Assembly (NCBI GenBank): GCA_018302805.1
Contig: JAGVZD010000002.1
Span: 1-46,723, forward strand
DNA length: 46,723 bases
Reading direction: 5' to 3'
From: Candidatus Woesearchaeota archaeon
Lineage (GTDB): Archaea > Nanobdellota > Nanobdellia > SCGC-AAA011-G17 > JAGVZF01
Both the position numbers and the translations under genes were made by a program. The notes beneath the pieces are model-generated. The model searched no databases. It worked only from the letters and a program-made list of their open reading frames with translations, and had not been told where the DNA came from. Positions 33,039 through 46,637 of this stretch are shown in pieces (the first letter of the stretch is position 1; the number at the start of each line of letters is the position of its first letter).

Positions 33039-33828
33039 GGATTTATGGATACTAACGATATTAGACTTCAAGAGATATTATACTTGGTCAGAAAGAATTG
33101 TATTTGATGTACTATTAAGCATAATTGGTTTCTTGAGTTTTGTATTAGTTTGGCAGGCTGTCTTTAAAGGAGGTTTTGAAGGTATAGGACCTTTGACAAA
33201 AGATAATTTCATTGTATTTATATTGTCTGGAAGTATTGTTTGGGAATTTATTAGCGTAAATTTAACAGGCGATGGTATATGGGCTTTTATAAGGGAGAAA
33301 TATCAGGGAACATTGCCTTACCTATTAGTTAGTCCTGCAAATAAATTAGCTTTTGTGTATAGCAAAGTCATGATTAATTTGTTTAAAATATTAATCAATG
33401 TTATATTGTCTTTGTTTGTTGCTTTTGTTTTCTTTGATATTAATTTTAATGGAAGTATTTTGTTAGCTATCTTTTCATTACTTCTTATTTTTGTTACATT
33501 TTCTGGGATTGGAATTGTAATTGCAAGTTTAGGTGCGTGGAGAGAAGGCATTGCAAATGTCTCTTTTGTTCTTGGTTCTATATTATACTTAGTATCTGGG
33601 GTATATTATCCAATAGAAATTTTTCCGGAAACAATGCAAAAAATATTTTTTGTACTACCAACAACCCAGTCAATCAACTTACTAAGAGAAATAGTAATTA
33701 ATAATGCATCTTTTCTTAATGTGTTTCCAATTTTAAGTTACCTGTTAATCTGGGGAATTGCTTTAATAATTTTAGGTCTTATAATTTTTAAGAAATTAGA
33801 AAAGAAAATTAGTTTATTAGGTATTTAA
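33025..33828 (+). CDS. ABC-2 type permease
   Basis: About six TM segments, REK.QGTL..LLVSP, SGVYYP. Confidence 0.9.
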   Translation: MSFFRDLWILTILDFKRYYTWSERIVFDVLLSIIGFLSFVLVWQAVFKGGFEGIGPLTKDNFIVFILSGSIVWEFISVNLTGDGIWAFIREKYQGTLPYLLVSPANKLAFVYSKVMINLFKILINVILSLFVAFVFFDINFNGSILLAIFSLLLIFVTFSGIGIVIASLGAWREGIANVSFVLGSILYLVSGVYYPIEIFPETMQKIFFVLPTTQSINLLREIVINNASFLNVFPILSYLLIWGIALIILGLIIFKKLEKKISLLGI

Positions 33829-33874
33829 TTAATTCGATAGACTTATAAATTTCTTTAAAATATTTTGAAACTAT

Positions 33875-33986
33875 GCTCCGTTAGTCTAGCCCGGTCAAGG
33901 ATTCGGCCCTCTCGAGCAAACTTTTCTTAAAAGTTTAATCAAAATGGAGAAAGGCCGAGACCCGAGTTCAAATCTCGGACGGAGCA
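33875..33986 (+). tRNA. tRNA-Glu(CTC) with 37-nt canonical intron (33915-33951)
   Basis: Acceptor GCTCCGT/ACGGAGC, anticodon stem CGGCC/GGCCG, BHB helix CTCT/GGAG, T arm CCGAG-TTCAAAT-CTCGG. Confidence 0.92.
33918..33943 (+). repeat. palindromic intron element, copy A
   Basis: AAACTTTT-CTT-AAAAGTTT-AATCAAA inside the tRNA-Glu intron. Confidence 0.9.
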
Positions 33987-34056
33987 TTTAATGCTTGAGA
34001 GCATTTAAATAATTTTTCACAATCTCTTTCCCGGAGGGGTGGTAGGAGGCAAATAA

Positions 34057-34518
34057 ATGAAAGGGATATTAAAAGGATCCTTAGCAGCAATTGTATTTGC
34101 TATCGGAGTTGAGGCAATTTCATGCAGTGAGGCAACAAGGCCTTTTGAACAAGGATTGGGCTGCACGCTGCAGGATACTACTTTGGTATCTGTAAATGAT
34201 CAAAGGTCACTTCGATTTGAAGCTGAAAGTAGCACCTATTATGTAAGGATTTTGCATGTAAGGCCAGAACCAGAGGATGTGCCCAACCCAAGTGCACATA
34301 TCGTTTCTATGTTGGTCAATAACTCAAGATACGTAAGTGGACTGTTGAGTAATGGTCAAGACATTGATAGGCTCTATTTAAGAGGAGAAACTACATCCAC
34401 CGAACCAACAGGTGGTGACGAAGCAATTCTAGACATTACGTACGCTAGGGGGCGCATTCCACCAAGTGAAGGTGCTGAAAGAGGAACTGTTGGTCTGAGA
34501 TTCATACGGTGTAGATAA
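34057..34518 (+). CDS. hypothetical secreted protein or lipoprotein
   Basis: AGGAGG RBS, signal-peptide-like N-terminus with Cys; GC-richer than neighbours. Confidence 0.7.
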   Translation: MKGILKGSLAAIVFAIGVEAISCSEATRPFEQGLGCTLQDTTLVSVNDQRSLRFEAESSTYYVRILHVRPEPEDVPNPSAHIVSMLVNNSRYVSGLLSNGQDIDRLYLRGETTSTEPTGGDEAILDITYARGRIPPSEGAERGTVGLRFIRCR

Positions 34519-34687
34519 ACTTACTTTTCTTTTTTTATTTAATCAAAAGAGGTAATGCCCAAATTAAAGATAATGCTAAGATCGAATAACTTACATGCCT
34601 CATAAATTTGTTAGTGTACCGATTAGGATTTCTACAGAGTCTGAAGAAAGTGCATATATTTATAAAAGTGGAGAAATTTAATTTTAA

Positions 34688-36277
34688 ATGCCAAATGCTT
34701 TATTAGTTTATCCAAAGAATCCTGTTACATTTTGGAGTTTTGATGAAGCTTTAAAGATTGCTGGGAAAAAATGTTCTTTTCAACCTGCAGGATTACTTAC
34801 AGTTGCAGGAATGTTACCAGAAAGATATGCGCCTAGAGTCATAGATGAAAATGTTGAACCTTTAAGAGATACAGATTTAGAATGGGCAGATGTTGTTTTA
34901 ACTTCATCTATGATAATACATTTGGATTCACTTGAAGAAATTATTAAACGAGCTAAAGAACATAGAAAACCTGTATTGTCGGGAGGTCCATTAGCAACAC
35001 AATATTTTAATGATATTAAAGGTGATGCAACTTTCTTCTTAGGCGAAGCTGAAGCAGGATTTGTTGACACATTAGATGAAATTGTAAGGCAAAGATTTAT
35101 ACCTGGAAAGCGAGTAGTTGATAAGCGAAAAAAGTTTGAATCCTTAAATAATACTCCTTTACAAAGATTTGATTTAATCAAGGATAATCTGCAAAAATAT
35201 GCTTCGATGGCTATACAAATTACCAGAGGTTGCCCGGAATCCTGCACTTTTTGTAACATACCCTCATTGTATGGAAAGAAAACAAGATTAAAATCTGCAA
35301 GCGATGTAATTCAAGAACTGCAATTACTCTATGATCTTAAATGGAGAGGATCGGTAATGATTGTAGATGATAATATTGTTGGTAATCAGACAGCAATTAT
35401 CCCGATTCTGAAAGAAACTGCTCATTGGCAAGAGAGGCATAACTATCCTTTTAGCCTCCATACTCAAGGAAGTTTAAGAATGTATGAAGATCCTAAGTTA
35501 ATGGACGCTATGTACCAAGCTGGATTTAATCTGGTTTTTTGGGGGTTAGAATCTCCAGCTGCTGAAAGTTTAAAGGCTATGGGTGCTCAAAAAAATCTGC
35601 AAGCAACTAATGAACGTGGAAGGAGATCAATGCTTGAAAAAGTTCGTGAAATTCAAAAATATTATTTTAGGGGTCAAGCTGGTTTCATTATTGGTTTTGA
35701 TGCAGACCCCCCTGATATTGCTAAGAGGATGAAGGCATTTATTGATGAATCAAGGATTAGTGTTGCAATGGTTGGTCCCTTAGGAGTCTTGCCAGATACT
35801 CCGGATTGGATAAGATACTCTAGAGATAATAGACTTGTAGAAAGTGTGAGGTATAATGGAGATTCTGGATTGTTTGCCAAAGAATTAAGTTATATTCCAA
35901 GATACCAAGATGGAAGTGAAATGGATCCAGAAATTGTTTTAGGAAGGCATCGTGAAGTTGTACAACATATAAACAGTCCTGAGAATTATTTTGCAAGGAC
36001 ATTAGATTATATTAATCATAGAGAAAGAAAACCAATTAGGCAAACTAGGATTGATTTTGCTAATTTTAAAGCTGCATTTAGATCTTTTTATTATCAAGGA
36101 ATTAAGAGTGATTACAAAAAAACTTACTGGGATTATTTATGGAAAGTTGCATCTCATGATTTAAGAGATATTCCAGATGCGATTACTTATGCTGTAGAAG
36201 GCCATCATTTAATTACGCTAACTAAAAAAGGGTTGGAAGAATTTAAGGGTAAAATTGGATTAGAGAAGAGTGTTTAA
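34688..36277 (+). CDS. B12-binding radical SAM protein (DUF4070/HpnP-like)
   Basis: LVYP...FWSF N-terminus, RGCPESCTFC (CxxxCxxC), VDDN, GFIIGFD. Confidence 0.9.
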   Translation: MPNALLVYPKNPVTFWSFDEALKIAGKKCSFQPAGLLTVAGMLPERYAPRVIDENVEPLRDTDLEWADVVLTSSMIIHLDSLEEIIKRAKEHRKPVLSGGPLATQYFNDIKGDATFFLGEAEAGFVDTLDEIVRQRFIPGKRVVDKRKKFESLNNTPLQRFDLIKDNLQKYASMAIQITRGCPESCTFCNIPSLYGKKTRLKSASDVIQELQLLYDLKWRGSVMIVDDNIVGNQTAIIPILKETAHWQERHNYPFSLHTQGSLRMYEDPKLMDAMYQAGFNLVFWGLESPAAESLKAMGAQKNLQATNERGRRSMLEKVREIQKYYFRGQAGFIIGFDADPPDIAKRMKAFIDESRISVAMVGPLGVLPDTPDWIRYSRDNRLVESVRYNGDSGLFAKELSYIPRYQDGSEMDPEIVLGRHREVVQHINSPENYFARTLDYINHRERKPIRQTRIDFANFKAAFRSFYYQGIKSDYKKTYWDYLWKVASHDLRDIPDAITYAVEGHHLITLTKKGLEEFKGKIGLEKSV

Positions 36278-36299
36278 GACTATATATTTTAATATAGCT

Positions 36300-37181
36300 T
36301 TATAATAATGGTAAGGCAACTAGTAAGGATATAATTAGTAATACATAACTTACATGTCTAATATAACTGTTTGTATATAAATTTGGGTTTTTTATTACTT
36401 TTAAATAAAAGGGGGCAATTAGTAAAACTATAGGGGTTAAATAAATTAAATTATATGGTAGTGAACCGATGTTCTCAATATTAAAGAATTTATCATTAAA
36501 TAACATTAAGAAAAATGAAGCTATCGCTATAAACATTAAAGCGAAGGCAGAAATTTTAATTCTATCTTTATTATAAGTTGTTACTGAACTTTTATACTTT
36601 AATTTTTTTTCTAAATCATAATGATGAAGTCTATAAAATAAAAATCCAGATGTTTTTGTCAATGTTACAAAAATTAAGCCTAAAATGGGGATGTTAAAAG
36701 ATGTTGTAAATAAAAACCATCCCGCTAAAAATCTCAGAATTTGGCCCAGCATACCGCAAGAGATAAAGTCCCAATTAGCAGATTCTTTAAATCTAAATGG
36801 TTTCAAAGTATAAGTTAATTGGTTGAATAAGGTAAATATTATTATTAAAAGAAAATAAAAACTAATGAGTGAAGATAAAATAATAGACAAAGAAATTAAA
36901 ATTGAGGCAGATATTGTGGCAGTTTTTTTACTTAATTGGCCTGATATTATAGGCCTTTCTTTCTTTTCTTTATGAAATTTGTCCACATAAATATCACTTA
37001 AGTCATTTAATATATAAAGACCAGACCACATTAATACCCCTAAGACTAAAAAACCAAAAAAGAACTCTTTTATAGGAGGTAATTTATTTAATGCTAAATA
37101 AGATGCCAGTAGCATCACCCATAAAGTTTTTAGCCATAATAGAGGCCTACATGATTTAATAATATTTAATAGAGTTTTCAA
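36300..37181 (-). CDS. UbiA family prenyltransferase
   Basis: RP..W.K, YILNDLSD..VD..H..K..RPI.SG; multiple TM; TTG start. Confidence 0.88.
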   Translation of the reverse strand: MKTLLNIIKSCRPLLWLKTLWVMLLASYLALNKLPPIKEFFFGFLVLGVLMWSGLYILNDLSDIYVDKFHKEKKERPIISGQLSKKTATISASILISLSIILSSLISFYFLLIIIFTLFNQLTYTLKPFRFKESANWDFISCGMLGQILRFLAGWFLFTTSFNIPILGLIFVTLTKTSGFLFYRLHHYDLEKKLKYKSSVTTYNKDRIKISAFALMFIAIASFFLMLFNDKFFNIENIGSLPYNLIYLTPIVLLIAPFYLKVIKNPNLYTNSYIRHVSYVLLIISLLVALPLL

Positions 37182-37222
37182 ATCACTATTTCATAATTTT
37201 ATGATGTTATAAAGTTTATGAT

Positions 37223-38419
37223 TTAATTACGTCTGTGTAAATTATTATGTCTTCTTGGTTTATTGAATCCGGATCTATAATCAAAATCTCTTCTTCCAAC
37301 ATCAAAGTAAACTCTTTTAAATTCTTCTCTAGGAAGCTTTAAAATTTTAATGGGATACTTTTGCAGGACAGCGGAAAAGAAAGAATGGTCATTAGAGGAA
37401 AGTAATGTTATTGCTTTTCCTGATTTGCCTGCGCGGGCAGTTCTACCAATTTGATGCACATATTCTTCTGGATTTTTTGGAACACTATAATTAAAGATAT
37501 GTGTAACATTTTTTATATCTAGACCCCGAGCAGCTATAGCAGTTGCTACAAGAACATGAGGTTTTCCCTTGTGAAAGCCATTTATAACATTTAATCTTTT
37601 GTTTTGTGACATACCTCCATGGATAACTTGCGCATCTATGTCATTCTTAATTAAATTCCTTGCAGTAAGATCTGCGTTTCGTCTAGTCGAACAAAAGACT
37701 ATGGCTAATTTAGGATTTTCTTTTTTGATTAAGTGCACTAGCATTGAGAATTTCTCTTTTATGTCAACATCATAATAAAATTGATTAAGGTAACTTTCTT
37801 CCACATGTGGTTGAGATCTAATAACTACTGGTGATTTCATGTAGTGATTTTTCAGTTTAGCAATATCATCAGATATAGTGGCCCCAAATAATAATGTCTG
37901 TCTATTTTTTGGAGTCGCCTTCAATATAATTTCTATGTCTTCGATAAATCCCATAGTAGACATTTTATCCGCTTCATCTAAAACAATGACTTTAATTTTT
38001 GATAGGTCTAAAGATCTTCTCGATAAATGATCTACTAATCTTCCAGGAGTGCCAACTACAATATCTGCTTTCCTAATGTGAAATTCTTGAGGTTGCAATG
38101 AAACCCCACCATAAACTACTGTTGTGTATAACTTAAAATATTTTGTAAGTTTTCTGATTTCCCTAGCTACCTGTTCAGCAAGTTCCCTTACAGGAACAAC
38201 AATTAGAATTTGCACTCCTTGCCCAGTTTTTATATTATCAAGAATAGATGAGCCAAATGCTATGGTTTTTCCCGAACCTGTTTTAGACATGGCAATTATA
38301 TCATGACCTGATTTTATTTGAGGTATAACCTTTATTTGGATATCTGTAGGTTCAATTATGTCTTCTTCAGATAATGCTTTAACTATTTCTTGTTTTATCC
38401 CTAATTCAGTAAAATCCAT
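37223..38419 (-). CDS. DEAD-box RNA helicase
   Basis: TGSGKT, PVRELA, GTPGR, DEAD, ARGLD, GRTAR. Confidence 0.95.
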   Translation of the reverse strand: MDFTELGIKQEIVKALSEEDIIEPTDIQIKVIPQIKSGHDIIAMSKTGSGKTIAFGSSILDNIKTGQGVQILIVVPVRELAEQVAREIRKLTKYFKLYTTVVYGGVSLQPQEFHIRKADIVVGTPGRLVDHLSRRSLDLSKIKVIVLDEADKMSTMGFIEDIEIILKATPKNRQTLLFGATISDDIAKLKNHYMKSPVVIRSQPHVEESYLNQFYYDVDIKEKFSMLVHLIKKENPKLAIVFCSTRRNADLTARNLIKNDIDAQVIHGGMSQNKRLNVINGFHKGKPHVLVATAIAARGLDIKNVTHIFNYSVPKNPEEYVHQIGRTARAGKSGKAITLLSSNDHSFFSAVLQKYPIKILKLPREEFKRVYFDVGRRDFDYRSGFNKPRRHNNLHRRN

Positions 38420-38579
38420 TTTTAATATAGAAAACCTTATAATTTCTAAAAGCTAAATATTCCATTAATCAGTGAGGTTTTAATCGAGTTTATAAACATA
38501 ACTATTTTAGACTTTTTAGATGAATTTGTTATACTTGACTTCATAAAATTTAAATATTAGTTTTGTATTTATCTAGATT

Positions 38580-39386
38580 ATGGTTAAAAAAATTAAAAAA
38601 TCAGGATTATTTGGTAAAGTTGTATTAGTATTAAGTATTCTACTTATGGTCTATTTAATAACAATAAATGCCTATTTATTTGACTTAAATAAAGATTTAA
38701 AGCAAGAATTAGCAAATTCAAAAGCTAATCTGGAGATTAAGAAAGAAAGTTTCAAATTTAGTGCTGAGAATGAGCAGGGGACTTTAGTAAGCATTTTATT
38801 ACCGGCAGTTAATAGGGATGGTAAAGGAGTCAGTACAGTATTGAAAATTCGTGCAGAAAAGGGGACTGGCAAAACCCTTGCAGATATAGACAATTTATTA
38901 TTCTGGGTAGATACACAAAATAGTATAAGGATGGCAAAAGAAGTTGCGTCTGATATAACCAATACGGATTTAAGCAATGTAGACTTAACATATAGTGTTG
39001 ATGCTGGTGATGCCCAAGTTATATCAGGACCTAGTGCGGGAGCTGCTTTGGCAATTGCAACTATTGCAGGAATTGAGGGCAAATCCCTTAATAAAAAAGT
39101 TATGATTACTGGTAGTATCAATCATGACGGAACTATTGGTCCTGTTGGGGAAATAGCTCAGAAAGCAAAGGCTGCCAAAGAAGCAGGTGCAGAAGTATTC
39201 CTTGTACCTTTACTACAAGGCCAAGAGGTTGTTTATGAAAGACAGGAACATTGTCAGAAATTCGGTAGAAGTCAATTCTGTACAATTGAGCAAATTCCAA
39301 AAAAGGTTAATGTTGAAGATGAAGCAGGCATTAAAATAGTTGAAGTGAGAACTATAAAGGAAGCTTTAGAATACTTCTATAATTAA
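38580..39386 (+). CDS. membrane-anchored Lon-C (S16) serine protease
   Basis: GPSAG Ser and PVGEI..K Lys dyad; N-terminal TM; no ATPase domain. Confidence 0.9.
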   Translation: MVKKIKKSGLFGKVVLVLSILLMVYLITINAYLFDLNKDLKQELANSKANLEIKKESFKFSAENEQGTLVSILLPAVNRDGKGVSTVLKIRAEKGTGKTLADIDNLLFWVDTQNSIRMAKEVASDITNTDLSNVDLTYSVDAGDAQVISGPSAGAALAIATIAGIEGKSLNKKVMITGSINHDGTIGPVGEIAQKAKAAKEAGAEVFLVPLLQGQEVVYERQEHCQKFGRSQFCTIEQIPKKVNVEDEAGIKIVEVRTIKEALEYFYN

Positions 39387-39387
39387 A

Positions 39388-40020
39388 ATGGATTTAGAAA
39401 AACTCAAAAAAGAACAAATTGAGTTATCCAGTAAAGTTTCAATTATTGGTACTCATAAAGAAATTAAAACTATTGGTGGTTGTGACCAATTAGTTATTGG
39501 AGATGAGATATATTCTTGTGTTGTTTTGTGTGATGCTGATAATTTTTCTGTTCTAGAAAAAACTTTTGCTATCAGAAAAGTTGATTTTCCTTATGTTCCT
39601 GGGTTTCTAGCATACAGAGAAGCACCGGTCATTATTGATGCTTTCTCAAAATTAAAAAATAAGCCTGATTTAATGATGATAGATGGAAATGGGATCTTAC
39701 ATCCGAGAAGATTTGGTATTGCATCACATCTTGGGGTTACATTAAATATAGCTACAATTGGAGTTGCTAAAAAATTATTGATAGGCAGAGTTGAGAAAGA
39801 CAAGGTATTTGTTGGGGAAGAGTTAAGAGCTATGAGATTAGAAACAAAAAAAGGAGCAAATCCAATATACATTAGCCCAGGACACATGGTAAGTGTTCTT
39901 AGAAGTTATGAAATTGCAAAAAATTCCATAAAGCCACCACATAAACTGCCAGAACCACTTCATTTAGCACATAAGTATGTTAGTAGAATCAAGGAAAAAG
40001 TAAGCCCGGTAGAAGAATAA
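39388..40020 (+). CDS. nfi: endonuclease V
   Basis: FPYVPGFLAYRE, DGNGILHPRRFGIASHLG, IGVAK, PIYISPGH. Confidence 0.95.
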   Translation: MDLEKLKKEQIELSSKVSIIGTHKEIKTIGGCDQLVIGDEIYSCVVLCDADNFSVLEKTFAIRKVDFPYVPGFLAYREAPVIIDAFSKLKNKPDLMMIDGNGILHPRRFGIASHLGVTLNIATIGVAKKLLIGRVEKDKVFVGEELRAMRLETKKGANPIYISPGHMVSVLRSYEIAKNSIKPPHKLPEPLHLAHKYVSRIKEKVSPVEE

Positions 40021-40024
40021 GCTG

Positions 40025-40038
40025 AAAGATTTATTAAG
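40025..40038 (+). promoter_or_regulatory. putative BRE/TATA promoter of tRNA-Val
   Basis: GAAAGATTTATTAA ~25-35 nt upstream of the tRNA 5' end. Confidence 0.5.
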
Positions 40039-40086
40039 TTAATCTTTTACAATGTTTTTATGGGCTTGTGGTCTAGTGGCTATGTC

Positions 40087-40114
40087 AGAAACTTTTGAGA
40101 AAAGTTTAATCAAA
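40087..40114 (+). repeat. palindromic intron element, copy B
   Basis: AGAAACTTTTGAGAAAAGTTTAATCAAA in tRNA-Val intron 1. Confidence 0.95.
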
Positions 40115-40163
40115 ATTTAAGTAGCAAACACAACTCTCACTCAGTTGAGGTCCCAGGTTCGAA

Positions 40164-40191
40164 AGAAACTTTTGAGAAAAGTTTAATCAAA
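40164..40191 (+). repeat. palindromic intron element, copy C
   Basis: 28 nt identical to copy B, forming the 5' end of tRNA-Val intron 2. Confidence 0.95.
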
Positions 40192-40224
40192 GTGCACGAA
40201 AGTCCTGGCAGGCCCACTTGTAAT

Positions 40225-40935
40225 ATGAATTATGACCAGCATTTTATAAAGGATGATCTTGTTGCAGCCAGGATAGTAAAGTACGCTCGGGTCTCATCAA
40301 AATATAAGGTAATTGAAATTGGTTCGGGTAATGGGGTTATAACAAAGCAATTAGTTAAAAAGAGCCCTGTCACTACTATTGAAATTGATCCTAAATTATG
40401 TGAAGAATTAGAAAAATTAAAACTACCAAACTTGAAAGTAATAAATAAAAATATTTTATCTTACAATATTGATTTTGATATTGCTGTTTCTAATCTACCA
40501 TTCAATATTTGTGAGCCATATTTTAATATTTTAATTAAAAAAGAATTTAAAAGGTGTGTATTTTGTGTTCCAATCTCTTTTTCAAATAGACTAACCAATG
40601 AACAAGGACTTCTTTCTTTGATAATCCCGTTGTTTTTCAAAATAAAAGTTTTAGAGACTATTCCAAGAGAAGCCATTTTACCTATACCAAAGACTGATTG
40701 TGCTATAATTTCTGTTGTCCCACAGAGAATTTGCAGTAAAAAAAATTCTGTTATAAAGGAGATTTATTTACAGATGGATAAGAAGTTAAAGGTGGCAATA
40801 AGAGAATCTTATTGTAAGGTGTTAAAATTAACAAAAAAACAAGCTAATGAAAGATTACCTAAACTTGATTATCTGGAAAAAAGAGTTTATATGTTAAATT
40901 ATATAGAGTGGAAACAACTCATTTTACAAATTTAA
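40225..40935 (+). CDS. ksgA: 16S rRNA adenine dimethyltransferase KsgA/Dim1
   Basis: DQHF, VIEIGSGNGVIT, IEID, SNLPFNI; start moved to ATG 40225 after the tRNA. Confidence 0.88.
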   Translation: MNYDQHFIKDDLVAARIVKYARVSSKYKVIEIGSGNGVITKQLVKKSPVTTIEIDPKLCEELEKLKLPNLKVINKNILSYNIDFDIAVSNLPFNICEPYFNILIKKEFKRCVFCVPISFSNRLTNEQGLLSLIIPLFFKIKVLETIPREAILPIPKTDCAIISVVPQRICSKKNSVIKEIYLQMDKKLKVAIRESYCKVLKLTKKQANERLPKLDYLEKRVYMLNYIEWKQLILQI

Positions 40936-46514: not shown

Positions 46515-46637
46515 TGGGCCCAACCGGATTTGAACCGGCGACCTATATCGATTTAATATTTCGATGGCTGTCCAATCTGGCTATCAGTATCACCCTCAAA
46601 TGAGTCGAATGCTCCAGCCAGGCTAAGCTATGGGCCC
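46515..46637 (-). tRNA. tRNA-Ile(GAT) with three introns (46589-46605, 46566-46581, 46545-46559)
   Basis: Acceptor GGGCCCA/TGGGCCC; three BHB-like motifs; removing 17+16+15 nt leaves a 75-nt cloverleaf with anticodon arm TTCGA-CTGATAA-TCGAA. Confidence 0.85.

Follow-up and report, generated by a model that had tools for sequence, protein, structure and literature searches.

A short palindromic motif lies within three tRNA introns on a contig of 46,723 nucleotides (nt) from a groundwater archaeon, Candidatus Woesearchaeota (JAGVZD010000002.1); this whole stretch is referred to as the window. The genome from which it derives (G000) comprises 1.03 Mb in 74 contigs, has 30% G+C and is 89.5% complete. 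The motif, AAACTTTT-N3-AAAAGTTT-N-ATCAAA(A), consists of a palindrome and a tail, and occurs three times in the window and five times in the genome. As a module of 27–28 nt, with an A/T-rich palindrome of 8–9 bp, a free 3-nt loop and the tail N-ATCAAAA, it is scattered among related archaea, where its sequence is nearly constant and where individual copies are present, absent or replaced at orthologous sites. The reading favored here, held with nearly as much confidence as doubt, is that of a dispersed, sequence-constrained module which resembles repetitive extragenic palindromic (REP) elements in behavior, is gained, lost and swapped as DNA, and is tolerated in tRNA genes, where it forms the hairpin on the intron side of a relaxed bulge-helix-bulge (BHB) intron.

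Motif copies and their tRNA introns

A pattern search of the window allowing two mismatches returned exactly three matches, all on the + strand (33918–33943, 40089–40114, and 40166–40191), at the starting positions given in the initial annotation, and no match of any kind occurred in 100 dinucleotide shuffles of the window. The two copies in tRNA-Val (40087–40114 and 40164–40191) are identical at 28 of 28 nt, as had been described, and the copy in tRNA-Glu shares 82% identity with them over the 28-nt span, the differences lying mainly in the loop. The annotated total of three holds for the window and not for the genome, where two further copies were identified in tRNA-Asp(GUC) at contig C33:4517 and in tRNA-Gln(UUG) at C67:1349. 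All five sit in tRNA introns in the sense orientation (at 37/38 in Glu and Asp, in the D arm and the T loop of Val, and in the T loop of Gln), and the claim that no copy lies outside introns is borne out for the window and for the whole G000 genome (zero copies in each). The reversed-pattern control gave no match across the whole genome, and a looser regular expression added only reverse-strand echoes of the palindrome and one unrelated sequence with four mismatches, found twice.

A chance origin of the motif is ruled out by the shuffles and by the orthologs in relatives. An assembly artefact, which might have produced the Val duplication, is likewise ruled out: the T-loop copy is bridged by contigs (40134–40300, 0–1 differences) from two runs of two studies (X1 and X8). 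For the D-arm copy there is no bridging contig among those listed, and the same motif-bearing D-arm intron is found in two independently assembled relatives, G006 and G011. Among the sequencing runs listed for this sequence, none is an RNA run.

Table 1. Motif copies, introns and host tRNA genes in the window
Feature	Position	Strand	Basis
tRNA-Glu(CUC) gene, one intron	33875..33986	+	Rfam tRNA match, 44.9 bits; ARAGORN after in-silico splicing
Glu intron, 37 nt, position 37/38	33915..33951	+	Hand-placed sites; RNAfold; spliced product canonical
Motif copy 1, loop CTT	33918..33944	+	Pattern search; pairwise comparison
tRNA-Val(CAC) gene, two introns	40062..40216	+	ARAGORN after removal of both introns
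Val D-arm intron, 43 nt	40085..40127	+	Hand-placed; spliced product canonical; same site motif-bearing in G006 and G011
Motif copy 2, loop GAG	40089..40115	+	Pattern search; pairwise comparison
Val T-loop intron, 39 nt, position 59/60	40164..40202	+	Hand-placed; intron-less alleles; spliced product canonical
Motif copy 3, loop GAG, same as copy 2 over 28 nt	40166..40192	+	Pattern search; contig-bridged in X1 and X8

Splice sites were placed by hand according to the BHB rule. All five introns of the genome exhibit one plan, which agrees with the arrangement annotated for the window, namely an element at or near the intron 5′ end followed by a local exon-pairing tail. One bulged nucleotide and 1–3 spacer nt precede the 8-bp palindrome with its 3-nt loop and the tail N-ATCAAA(A), and these are followed by a variable linker, a 4-nt exon-complementary strand and two bulged nucleotides. 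The exon partner of the 4-nt strand corresponds to the four nucleotides before the last two of the 5′ exon. In the Glu intron, 3 nt precede the motif and 8 nt follow it as a tail, the GGAG of which pairs with nucleotides 32–35 of the loop. The Val D-arm intron has 4 nt before the motif and a tail of 13 nt, with its TAGC paired to the exon GCTA at 40079–40082, and the Val T-loop intron has 2 nt before the motif and a tail of 11 nt, with its CGAA paired to the T-loop TTCG. With these hand-placed sites the 3′ splice site is canonical in five of five introns, a 3-nt bulge lying between an exon helix and the 4-bp helix in which intron and exon pair. The 5′ splice site is relaxed: the hairpin starts 1–4 nt past the cut, and 8–30 unpaired nt separate its 3′ side from the 4-bp helix. 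Minimum-energy structures from RNAfold reproduce the stem (the anticodon stem in Glu), the 4-bp helix and the motif hairpin in the Glu and Gln precursors; the expected helices are absent from the whole-gene folds of the Val and Asp precursors.

The unspliced Val gene is missed by ARAGORN and by Rfam. After in-silico splicing, ARAGORN calls canonical Glu(ctc) of 75 nt, Val(cac) of 73 nt and Gln(ttg) of 73 nt, which supports the host genes and intron positions that had been assigned in the window. The spliced Asp(gtc) is also called, and its second (D-arm) intron has many possible boundaries. The three motif-bearing introns, annotated as the longest in the window, measure 37, 43, and 39 nt; the range of 12–17 nt given for the others is inexact, since an intron of about 33 nt was recognized by eye in the tRNA at 46515–46637. 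This gene, 123 nt on the − strand with the anticodon CAU, appears by eye to hold two introns, the one of about 33 nt in the anticodon loop and one of about 15 nt after the anticodon stem, neither of which carries the motif.

Several further features of tRNA genes in G000 were observed. The motif-bearing tRNA-Asp intron (C33:4448–4598, L001) has a degenerate second 3′ arm, which allows a longer, alternative helix with the 5′ arm, and the additional D-arm intron of the same gene has a hairpin of its own. At C14:8632–8734, a putative tRNA-Val contains an intron that by eye appears to split the anticodon (GAC once removed). A KsgA-like open reading frame (ORF) extends from 40225 onward in the window, with its ATG 33 nt past the Val T-loop copy; in the congener G006 (L012) the ATG lies 51 nt past the Glu-CUC copy. 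In each of the two congeners the tRNA immediately preceding this ORF bears the motif, yet it is Val in G000 and Glu-CUC in G006.

The enzyme that would cut these sites is encoded in G000 by a single PF01974 match, a 201-aa ORF of the alpha type whose closest solved relative is the catalytic subunit of N. equitans. No second subunit was detected at E ≤ 0.001 in this 89.5% complete genome. Related sequences are titled Candidatus Woesearchaeota or Nanoarchaeota metagenome-assembled genome (MAG), with a best identity of 74%. The endonuclease gene and an RNase Z-like gene are divergent neighbors on contig C49 (L067). Of 27 tRNA genes, 14 have a TATA-like box that starts 31–35 nt upstream of the mature 5′ end, and no archaeal RNase P RNA was found in the genome at its stated completeness. 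The tRNA transcripts of G000 may be nearly leaderless, as in Nanoarchaeum equitans, for which near-leaderless tRNA transcripts have been described (PMC3491384).

Distribution, constraint and variation among relatives

The genomes of relatives are incomplete and, being related, are not independent samples, and introns and contexts in them were assigned mostly by eye on the flanks. Of 201 genomes sampled from the order, 61 contain the motif at up to two mismatches, copy numbers across the sample being 0–40 per genome, and the reversed-pattern control gave one match in each of two genomes. A class-level sample searched with at most one mismatch revealed the motif in 48 of 301 genomes, families of other orders included (47 of 300 without the unpublished G400). 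Low-copy genomes hold it mostly in tRNA introns and high-copy genomes mostly at gene boundaries. The proposal of an intron-specific system, to be judged by intron versus intergenic counts, thus agrees with G000 (five of five copies in introns) and fails across the order, where intergenic copies are abundant. All four copies of the congener G006 lie in tRNA introns (Glu-CUC, Glu-UUC, Val D arm, and Leu/Ser D loop). The first matches from 30 genomes of other families lie within tRNA introns (17), directly at tRNA ends (two) or elsewhere (11), as judged by inspection and an ARAGORN deletion test. In G010, which has 27 copies at up to two mismatches, 19 exact copies were fetched: 16 of these neighbor ORFs, one is in a tRNA-Ser intron, and two are close to tRNAs, one abutting the 5′ end and the other 33 nt upstream.

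The module follows rules of position in both settings. The 38 sense copies in introns (G000, five; G006, four; loci L018–L047, 18; G010, one; and G045, G116, G074 and G011, ten together) occupy position 37/38 (n = 24), the T loop (n = 7) and the D arm or D loop (n = 7), and by eye the palindrome always starts 1–4 nt past the 5′ splice site. The sole antisense copy, in a tRNA-Phe D-loop intron of G116, shows mirrored geometry, its palindrome abutting the exon-pairing strand. In copies that are not intronic, it is the palindrome side of the module that adjoins a gene boundary. Of 76 copies examined, 17 begin directly at a stop codon, the T of which precedes the motif; three begin 3 nt past a tRNA 3′ end, and reversed copies end 0–3 nt ahead of five tRNA genes and five start codons (by eye). 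One rRNA operon carries three units between tRNA-Ala and the 23S rRNA gene, all of them sense. The distance from forward copies to the next start ranges from 2 to more than 60 nt, and the ORF upstream shares the strand of the copy in 35 cases and lies on the other strand in 14.

The constraint acts on the sequence rather than on the fold. Among 58 copies from relatives, 23 positions are near-invariant, and the loop and the position before the tail are variable. In the orthologous Glu(CUC) intron of five genomes from three families, 22 of 23 specified motif positions are kept, as opposed to 26 of 40 positions in the 5′ exon; the loop differs in all five genomes and the linker varies in length. 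Copies that look recent have the same loop (the two Val copies and the Gln copy in G000, and both copies in a tRNA-Gly of G189, one gene with two copies as in tRNA-Val of G000), and differing loops would therefore mark older copies held by selection on the remaining sequence.

At the DNA level, presence and absence of the module vary at orthologous sites. Empty alleles of the orthologous tRNA genes, for which the initial annotation had proposed a search, were encountered at the Val T loop: it has no intron in G006, whose Val ortholog contains the D-arm intron only, and DNA alleles in runs X1, X6, and X8 end at 40163 and pass directly to the 3′ exon, matching the predicted junction. Another empty T-loop allele, of different T-loop sequence, is present in X1, X4, and X8. 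A G006-like relative co-occurs in the same metagenomes (window 33800–40300; X1, X4, X6, and X8), and on its contigs the Glu-type 5′ exon is joined to a different intron set and a KsgA-like gene follows tRNA-Glu. The D-arm copy of G011 (L393) belongs to a genome of another family. In tRNA-Gln(UUG), G006 has introns in the D loop and the anticodon region and an empty T loop, and G000 has the reverse; in the orthologous Leu/Ser D-loop intron of these two genomes, a similar tail accompanies a different hairpin. Introns at different positions (D arm, T loop, and 37/38) have only the 28-nt core in common, their tails being local. The Val and Gln T-loop introns possess a common motif, similar tails and identical T-arm flanks, which is consistent with their transfer through recombination of T arms similar in sequence.

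The congeners G010 and G038 provide a comparison at gene boundaries. For 19 G010 sites, a motif-bearing ortholog exists in three cases (and a partial one in a fourth) among 19 G038 sites. Six G010 sites were sought in G038, two of the searches (L052 and L063) giving nothing usable. In the G038 ortholog of site L054, exactly the 28 nt of the module are missing, with flanks 88% identical, and three other orthologous G038 sites carry a different hairpin after the same stop codon. A second hairpin family, with the CTTTT-N3-AAAAG core of the motif and another stem base and tail, was noticed at gene ends (G010, G038, G045, and G074; e.g., L062, L354, L375, L417, and L419), and replaces the motif at some orthologous sites.

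Exact matches extend to 56 stretches of a viral collection and at least 120 stretches of a metagenome collection. Two multi-copy viral contigs encode a major capsid protein of nucleocytoplasmic large DNA viruses (NCLDV), and one contig with five copies codes for a virophage capsid protein. G+C content among the metagenome loci spans 19% to 70%, and in G+C-rich contigs the motif forms an A/T island at gene ends; tandem arrays exist, with periods of about 27–38 nt. This spread is evidence against an intron system confined to one lineage and speaks for a portable unit or for a reader with a wide distribution. On viral contigs (L181, L195, L202, L208, and others), identical copies of the motif follow stop codons or immediately precede start codons, in some cases as tandem arrays. 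On four hot-spring contigs (L246, L258, L264, and L286), a pilin-like ORF includes in its lysine-rich N-terminus, in frame, both the motif and related hairpin units, which are in tandem in L258. In literature searches with supplements outside their reach, 15-mers of the motif matched one mammalian study only, in no relevant context, and nothing linked Woesearchaeota tRNA introns to a shared sequence.

Weighing the possible readings

In the favored reading, the module would be scattered through the class, arriving by insertion and being gained, lost and swapped as DNA, and a putative reader protein would hold its sequence constant. Within a tRNA gene it would survive because the splicing endonuclease removes it. 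Located 1–4 nt past the 5′ splice site, the module would supply the intron-side hairpin, and a short, locally evolved tail would supply the 4-nt exon-pairing strand and the 3′ bulge, giving a relaxed BHB intron; T-loop introns might then spread among tRNAs with a common T-arm sequence. Of the two origins first suggested for the element, that of a REP/MITE-like element rendered harmless by splicing fits better, given the intergenic abundance in relatives, the 28-nt empty site and the fact that introns at different positions have no more than the core in common; the features of a miniature inverted-repeat transposable element (MITE) are missing from it. A MITE proper is ruled out, as the presence/absence site of 28 nt shows a repeat of at most 1 nt and nothing internal is found beyond the 3-nt loop.

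A number of observations weigh against this reading. The strand bias in introns (38 sense copies to one antisense) is not predicted by random insertion, and a single orthologous copy conserved across families fits a host function better than a selfish element; these are the main facts that a passenger model leaves unexplained. Most introns are longer than the module, and insertion alone therefore does not create them. As G000 has no intergenic copy, movement in this genome is deduced from its relatives. No target duplication greater than 1 nt accompanies the L054/G038 difference. The folding energy of the three window introns, −3.2 to −3.5 kcal/mol, denotes a weak RNA hairpin, and 73–96 of 200 shuffles fold at least as well. 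Stem covariation in 292 copies amounts to three double compensated pairs against 27 single changes (18 mismatches and nine G-U pairs), in a set which is biased and proves little because the copies were collected at up to two mismatches. To our knowledge, no mobilizing enzyme for the module has been described. The suggested co-occurrence with HUH/Y1 transposases did not materialize, Y1 genes (PF01797) being present in 20 of the 61 genomes with the motif and in 41 of the other 140, in one of nine genomes with at least 13 copies, and in neither G000 nor G006. Genes of the TnpB type (PF07282) are weakly enriched (26 of 61 motif-bearing genomes and 42 of 140 others; seven of nine high-copy genomes) and were not adjacent to a copy in two cases viewed by coordinates. 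No transposase for the motif emerged from the comparison of Y1 and TnpB-type genes across the 201 genomes of the order, and no reader protein was found.

Three alternatives have been considered, and all four readings overlap. Doubtful, yet with an appreciable share of the probability, is an RNA signal in which a conserved protein would read the hairpin and single-stranded tail and thereby mark ends or processing sites of mRNAs, pre-tRNAs and pre-rRNA; intron copies would then serve tRNA maturation, or act after excision as small, possibly circular RNAs. A constrained sequence with a free loop would be expected of such a signal, as would the purine-rich character of the loop on one strand (thymine occupies the third loop position in four of 58 copies), the 38:1 sense bias in introns and the sense orientation of all three rRNA-spacer copies. 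The three copies 3 nt past tRNA 3′ ends, the excess of same-strand over opposite-strand upstream ORFs (35 versus 14) and the constant placement of the module in removed or untranslated parts of transcripts point in the same direction. Reversed copies between same-direction genes, and directly before tRNA 5′ ends and start codons, are harder to accommodate, as is the weakness of the hairpin. Moreover, other G000 introns have unrelated hairpins at the same place, so that splicing itself does not require the motif sequence. In the window and ten motif-rich loci, only tRNA and rRNA models of Rfam 15 match, leaving the motif without an Rfam family, and no candidate protein was found.

A transcription signal acting in DNA is improbable. 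Here the module would be a gene-boundary cassette whose palindrome, with T4 runs on both strands, ends transcription and whose tail half, resembling a TFB recognition element (BRE) and TATA box as in the tRNA promoters of G000, starts it; copies within introns would be fossils, or else internal promoters that serve the gene downstream. Its attraction lies in the arrangement at gene ends, where forward copies start at stop codons (17 of 76), downstream starts are commonly 7–62 nt away, and reversed copies end 0–3 nt before five tRNA genes and five start codons and, again by eye, before virophage genes. The reversed placement sets the tail about where the TATA box of a leaderless transcript lies, and the TATA-like box of 14 of 27 tRNA genes is at a fixed −31 to −35. 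The KsgA-like starts 33 nt after the Val T-loop copy in G000 and 51 nt after the Glu copy in G006 would also agree with it, as would the retention in sister species of a hairpin of different sequence after the stop codon. The main fact against the signal models is that G000 has no intergenic copy, and the module is therefore not a general signal of this genome. The distances to downstream starts vary widely and do not uphold a promoter at fixed distance, transcription offers no rationale for the 1–4-nt spacing to the 5′ splice site or for the predominance of sense copies in introns, a terminator within a tRNA gene would harm, and the promoter likeness was judged by eye only.

Very unlikely is a classical mobile intron family of the Thermoproteales type, in which whole BHB introns copy between tRNA genes and positions and intergenic copies are look-alikes or escaped introns: the common orientation of all intron copies but one, the two same-loop copies in tRNA-Gly of G189 and in tRNA-Val of G000, and the shared tails and flanks of the Val and Gln T-loop introns would suit it, but introns at different positions share only 28 nt, intergenic copies are exact and far more numerous in some genomes, and it is the bare 28-nt unit that differs between sister species. 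The mobile intron family with site-specific tails first proposed is accordingly retained for the Val/Gln T-loop pair and not elsewhere.

Relation to known systems

REP elements of bacteria consist of a short extragenic palindrome and a conserved flanking oligonucleotide, often lie just after genes and occur with Y1 transposases termed RAYT (REP-associated tyrosine transposases). The module is similar in combining a palindrome with a conserved flanking oligonucleotide, in lying outside genes and often directly downstream of them, in occurring in either orientation and in tandem arrays, and in its variable copy number; this extragenic, multi-copy pattern is seen in the relatives and not in G000, where all five copies are intronic. 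In contrast to REP elements, it has no Y1 association, its hairpin is A/T-rich and weak, it resides inside tRNA genes as introns and it is conserved far beyond one species. The ends of IS200/IS605 elements comprise a sub-terminal hairpin and a short cleavage or target motif and leave no duplication. The hairpin with a short, conserved single-stranded motif and the precise 28-nt difference without duplication are comparable; unlike these elements, the module has a single hairpin and no cargo, and the Y1 gene is absent from G000 and most high-copy genomes, with the TnpB type weakly enriched. A likeness also exists to the hairpin rule of giant viruses.

Introners of algae and fungi are spliceosomal introns made by transposons in eukaryotic protein genes, with target duplications. 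They share with the module the principle that a dispersed DNA element creates an intron since the host splicing machinery can remove it; they differ in that the module lies in predicted protein-spliced BHB introns of archaeal tRNA genes, shows no duplication and is not known to have a transposase. An unlikely but more far-reaching proposal is that the module is at once a gene-boundary mark, read by a sequence-specific protein common to these archaea and some giant viruses and virophages, and a vehicle for the birth of protein-spliced tRNA introns, as an archaeal counterpart of the introners. On this proposal a bare module arriving after T-loop position 59 could be spliced at once, its tail being partly complementary to the conserved T-loop sequence; two relatives (L037 and L039) have this appearance, with a T-loop intron made of the module and about 5 nt. 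The exact, class-wide conservation of an A/T-rich 23-mer and its presence in giant-virus and virophage contigs point to a putative sequence-specific reader.

Among archaea, DPANN splicing endonucleases have been tied to heavily disrupted tRNA genes (Kaneta et al., 2018; PMC5829648). G000 resembles the system described there in having one alpha-type subunit in a Woesearchaeota-like genome with many non-canonical tRNA introns, and differs in its shared intron sequence, the available text of that article describing none. The gain of archaeal tRNA introns at new positions is an open question (PMC4090602), for which the motif offers a concrete, traceable candidate vehicle. For Asgard archaea, a 2026 preprint found no general route of intron gain (10.64898/2026.10.13.758758). 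The closest precedent in these sources for the sharing of a motif between intron positions comes from Thermoproteales, where related tRNA introns occur at different positions through intron transposition (Fujishima et al., 2010, via PMC4090602 and 10.64898/2026.10.13.758758), by a mechanism described there as unknown and thought to act on DNA. In contrast to that precedent as described there, the copies of the motif share a 28-nt core and not an intron, with whole-intron similarity only in the Val/Gln T-loop pair; the core is class-wide, has dozens of copies outside introns and is polymorphic as a bare unit between sister species. A defined unit of 28 nt that is found in intronic, intergenic, empty-site and swapped states among close relatives makes the birth of such introns testable.

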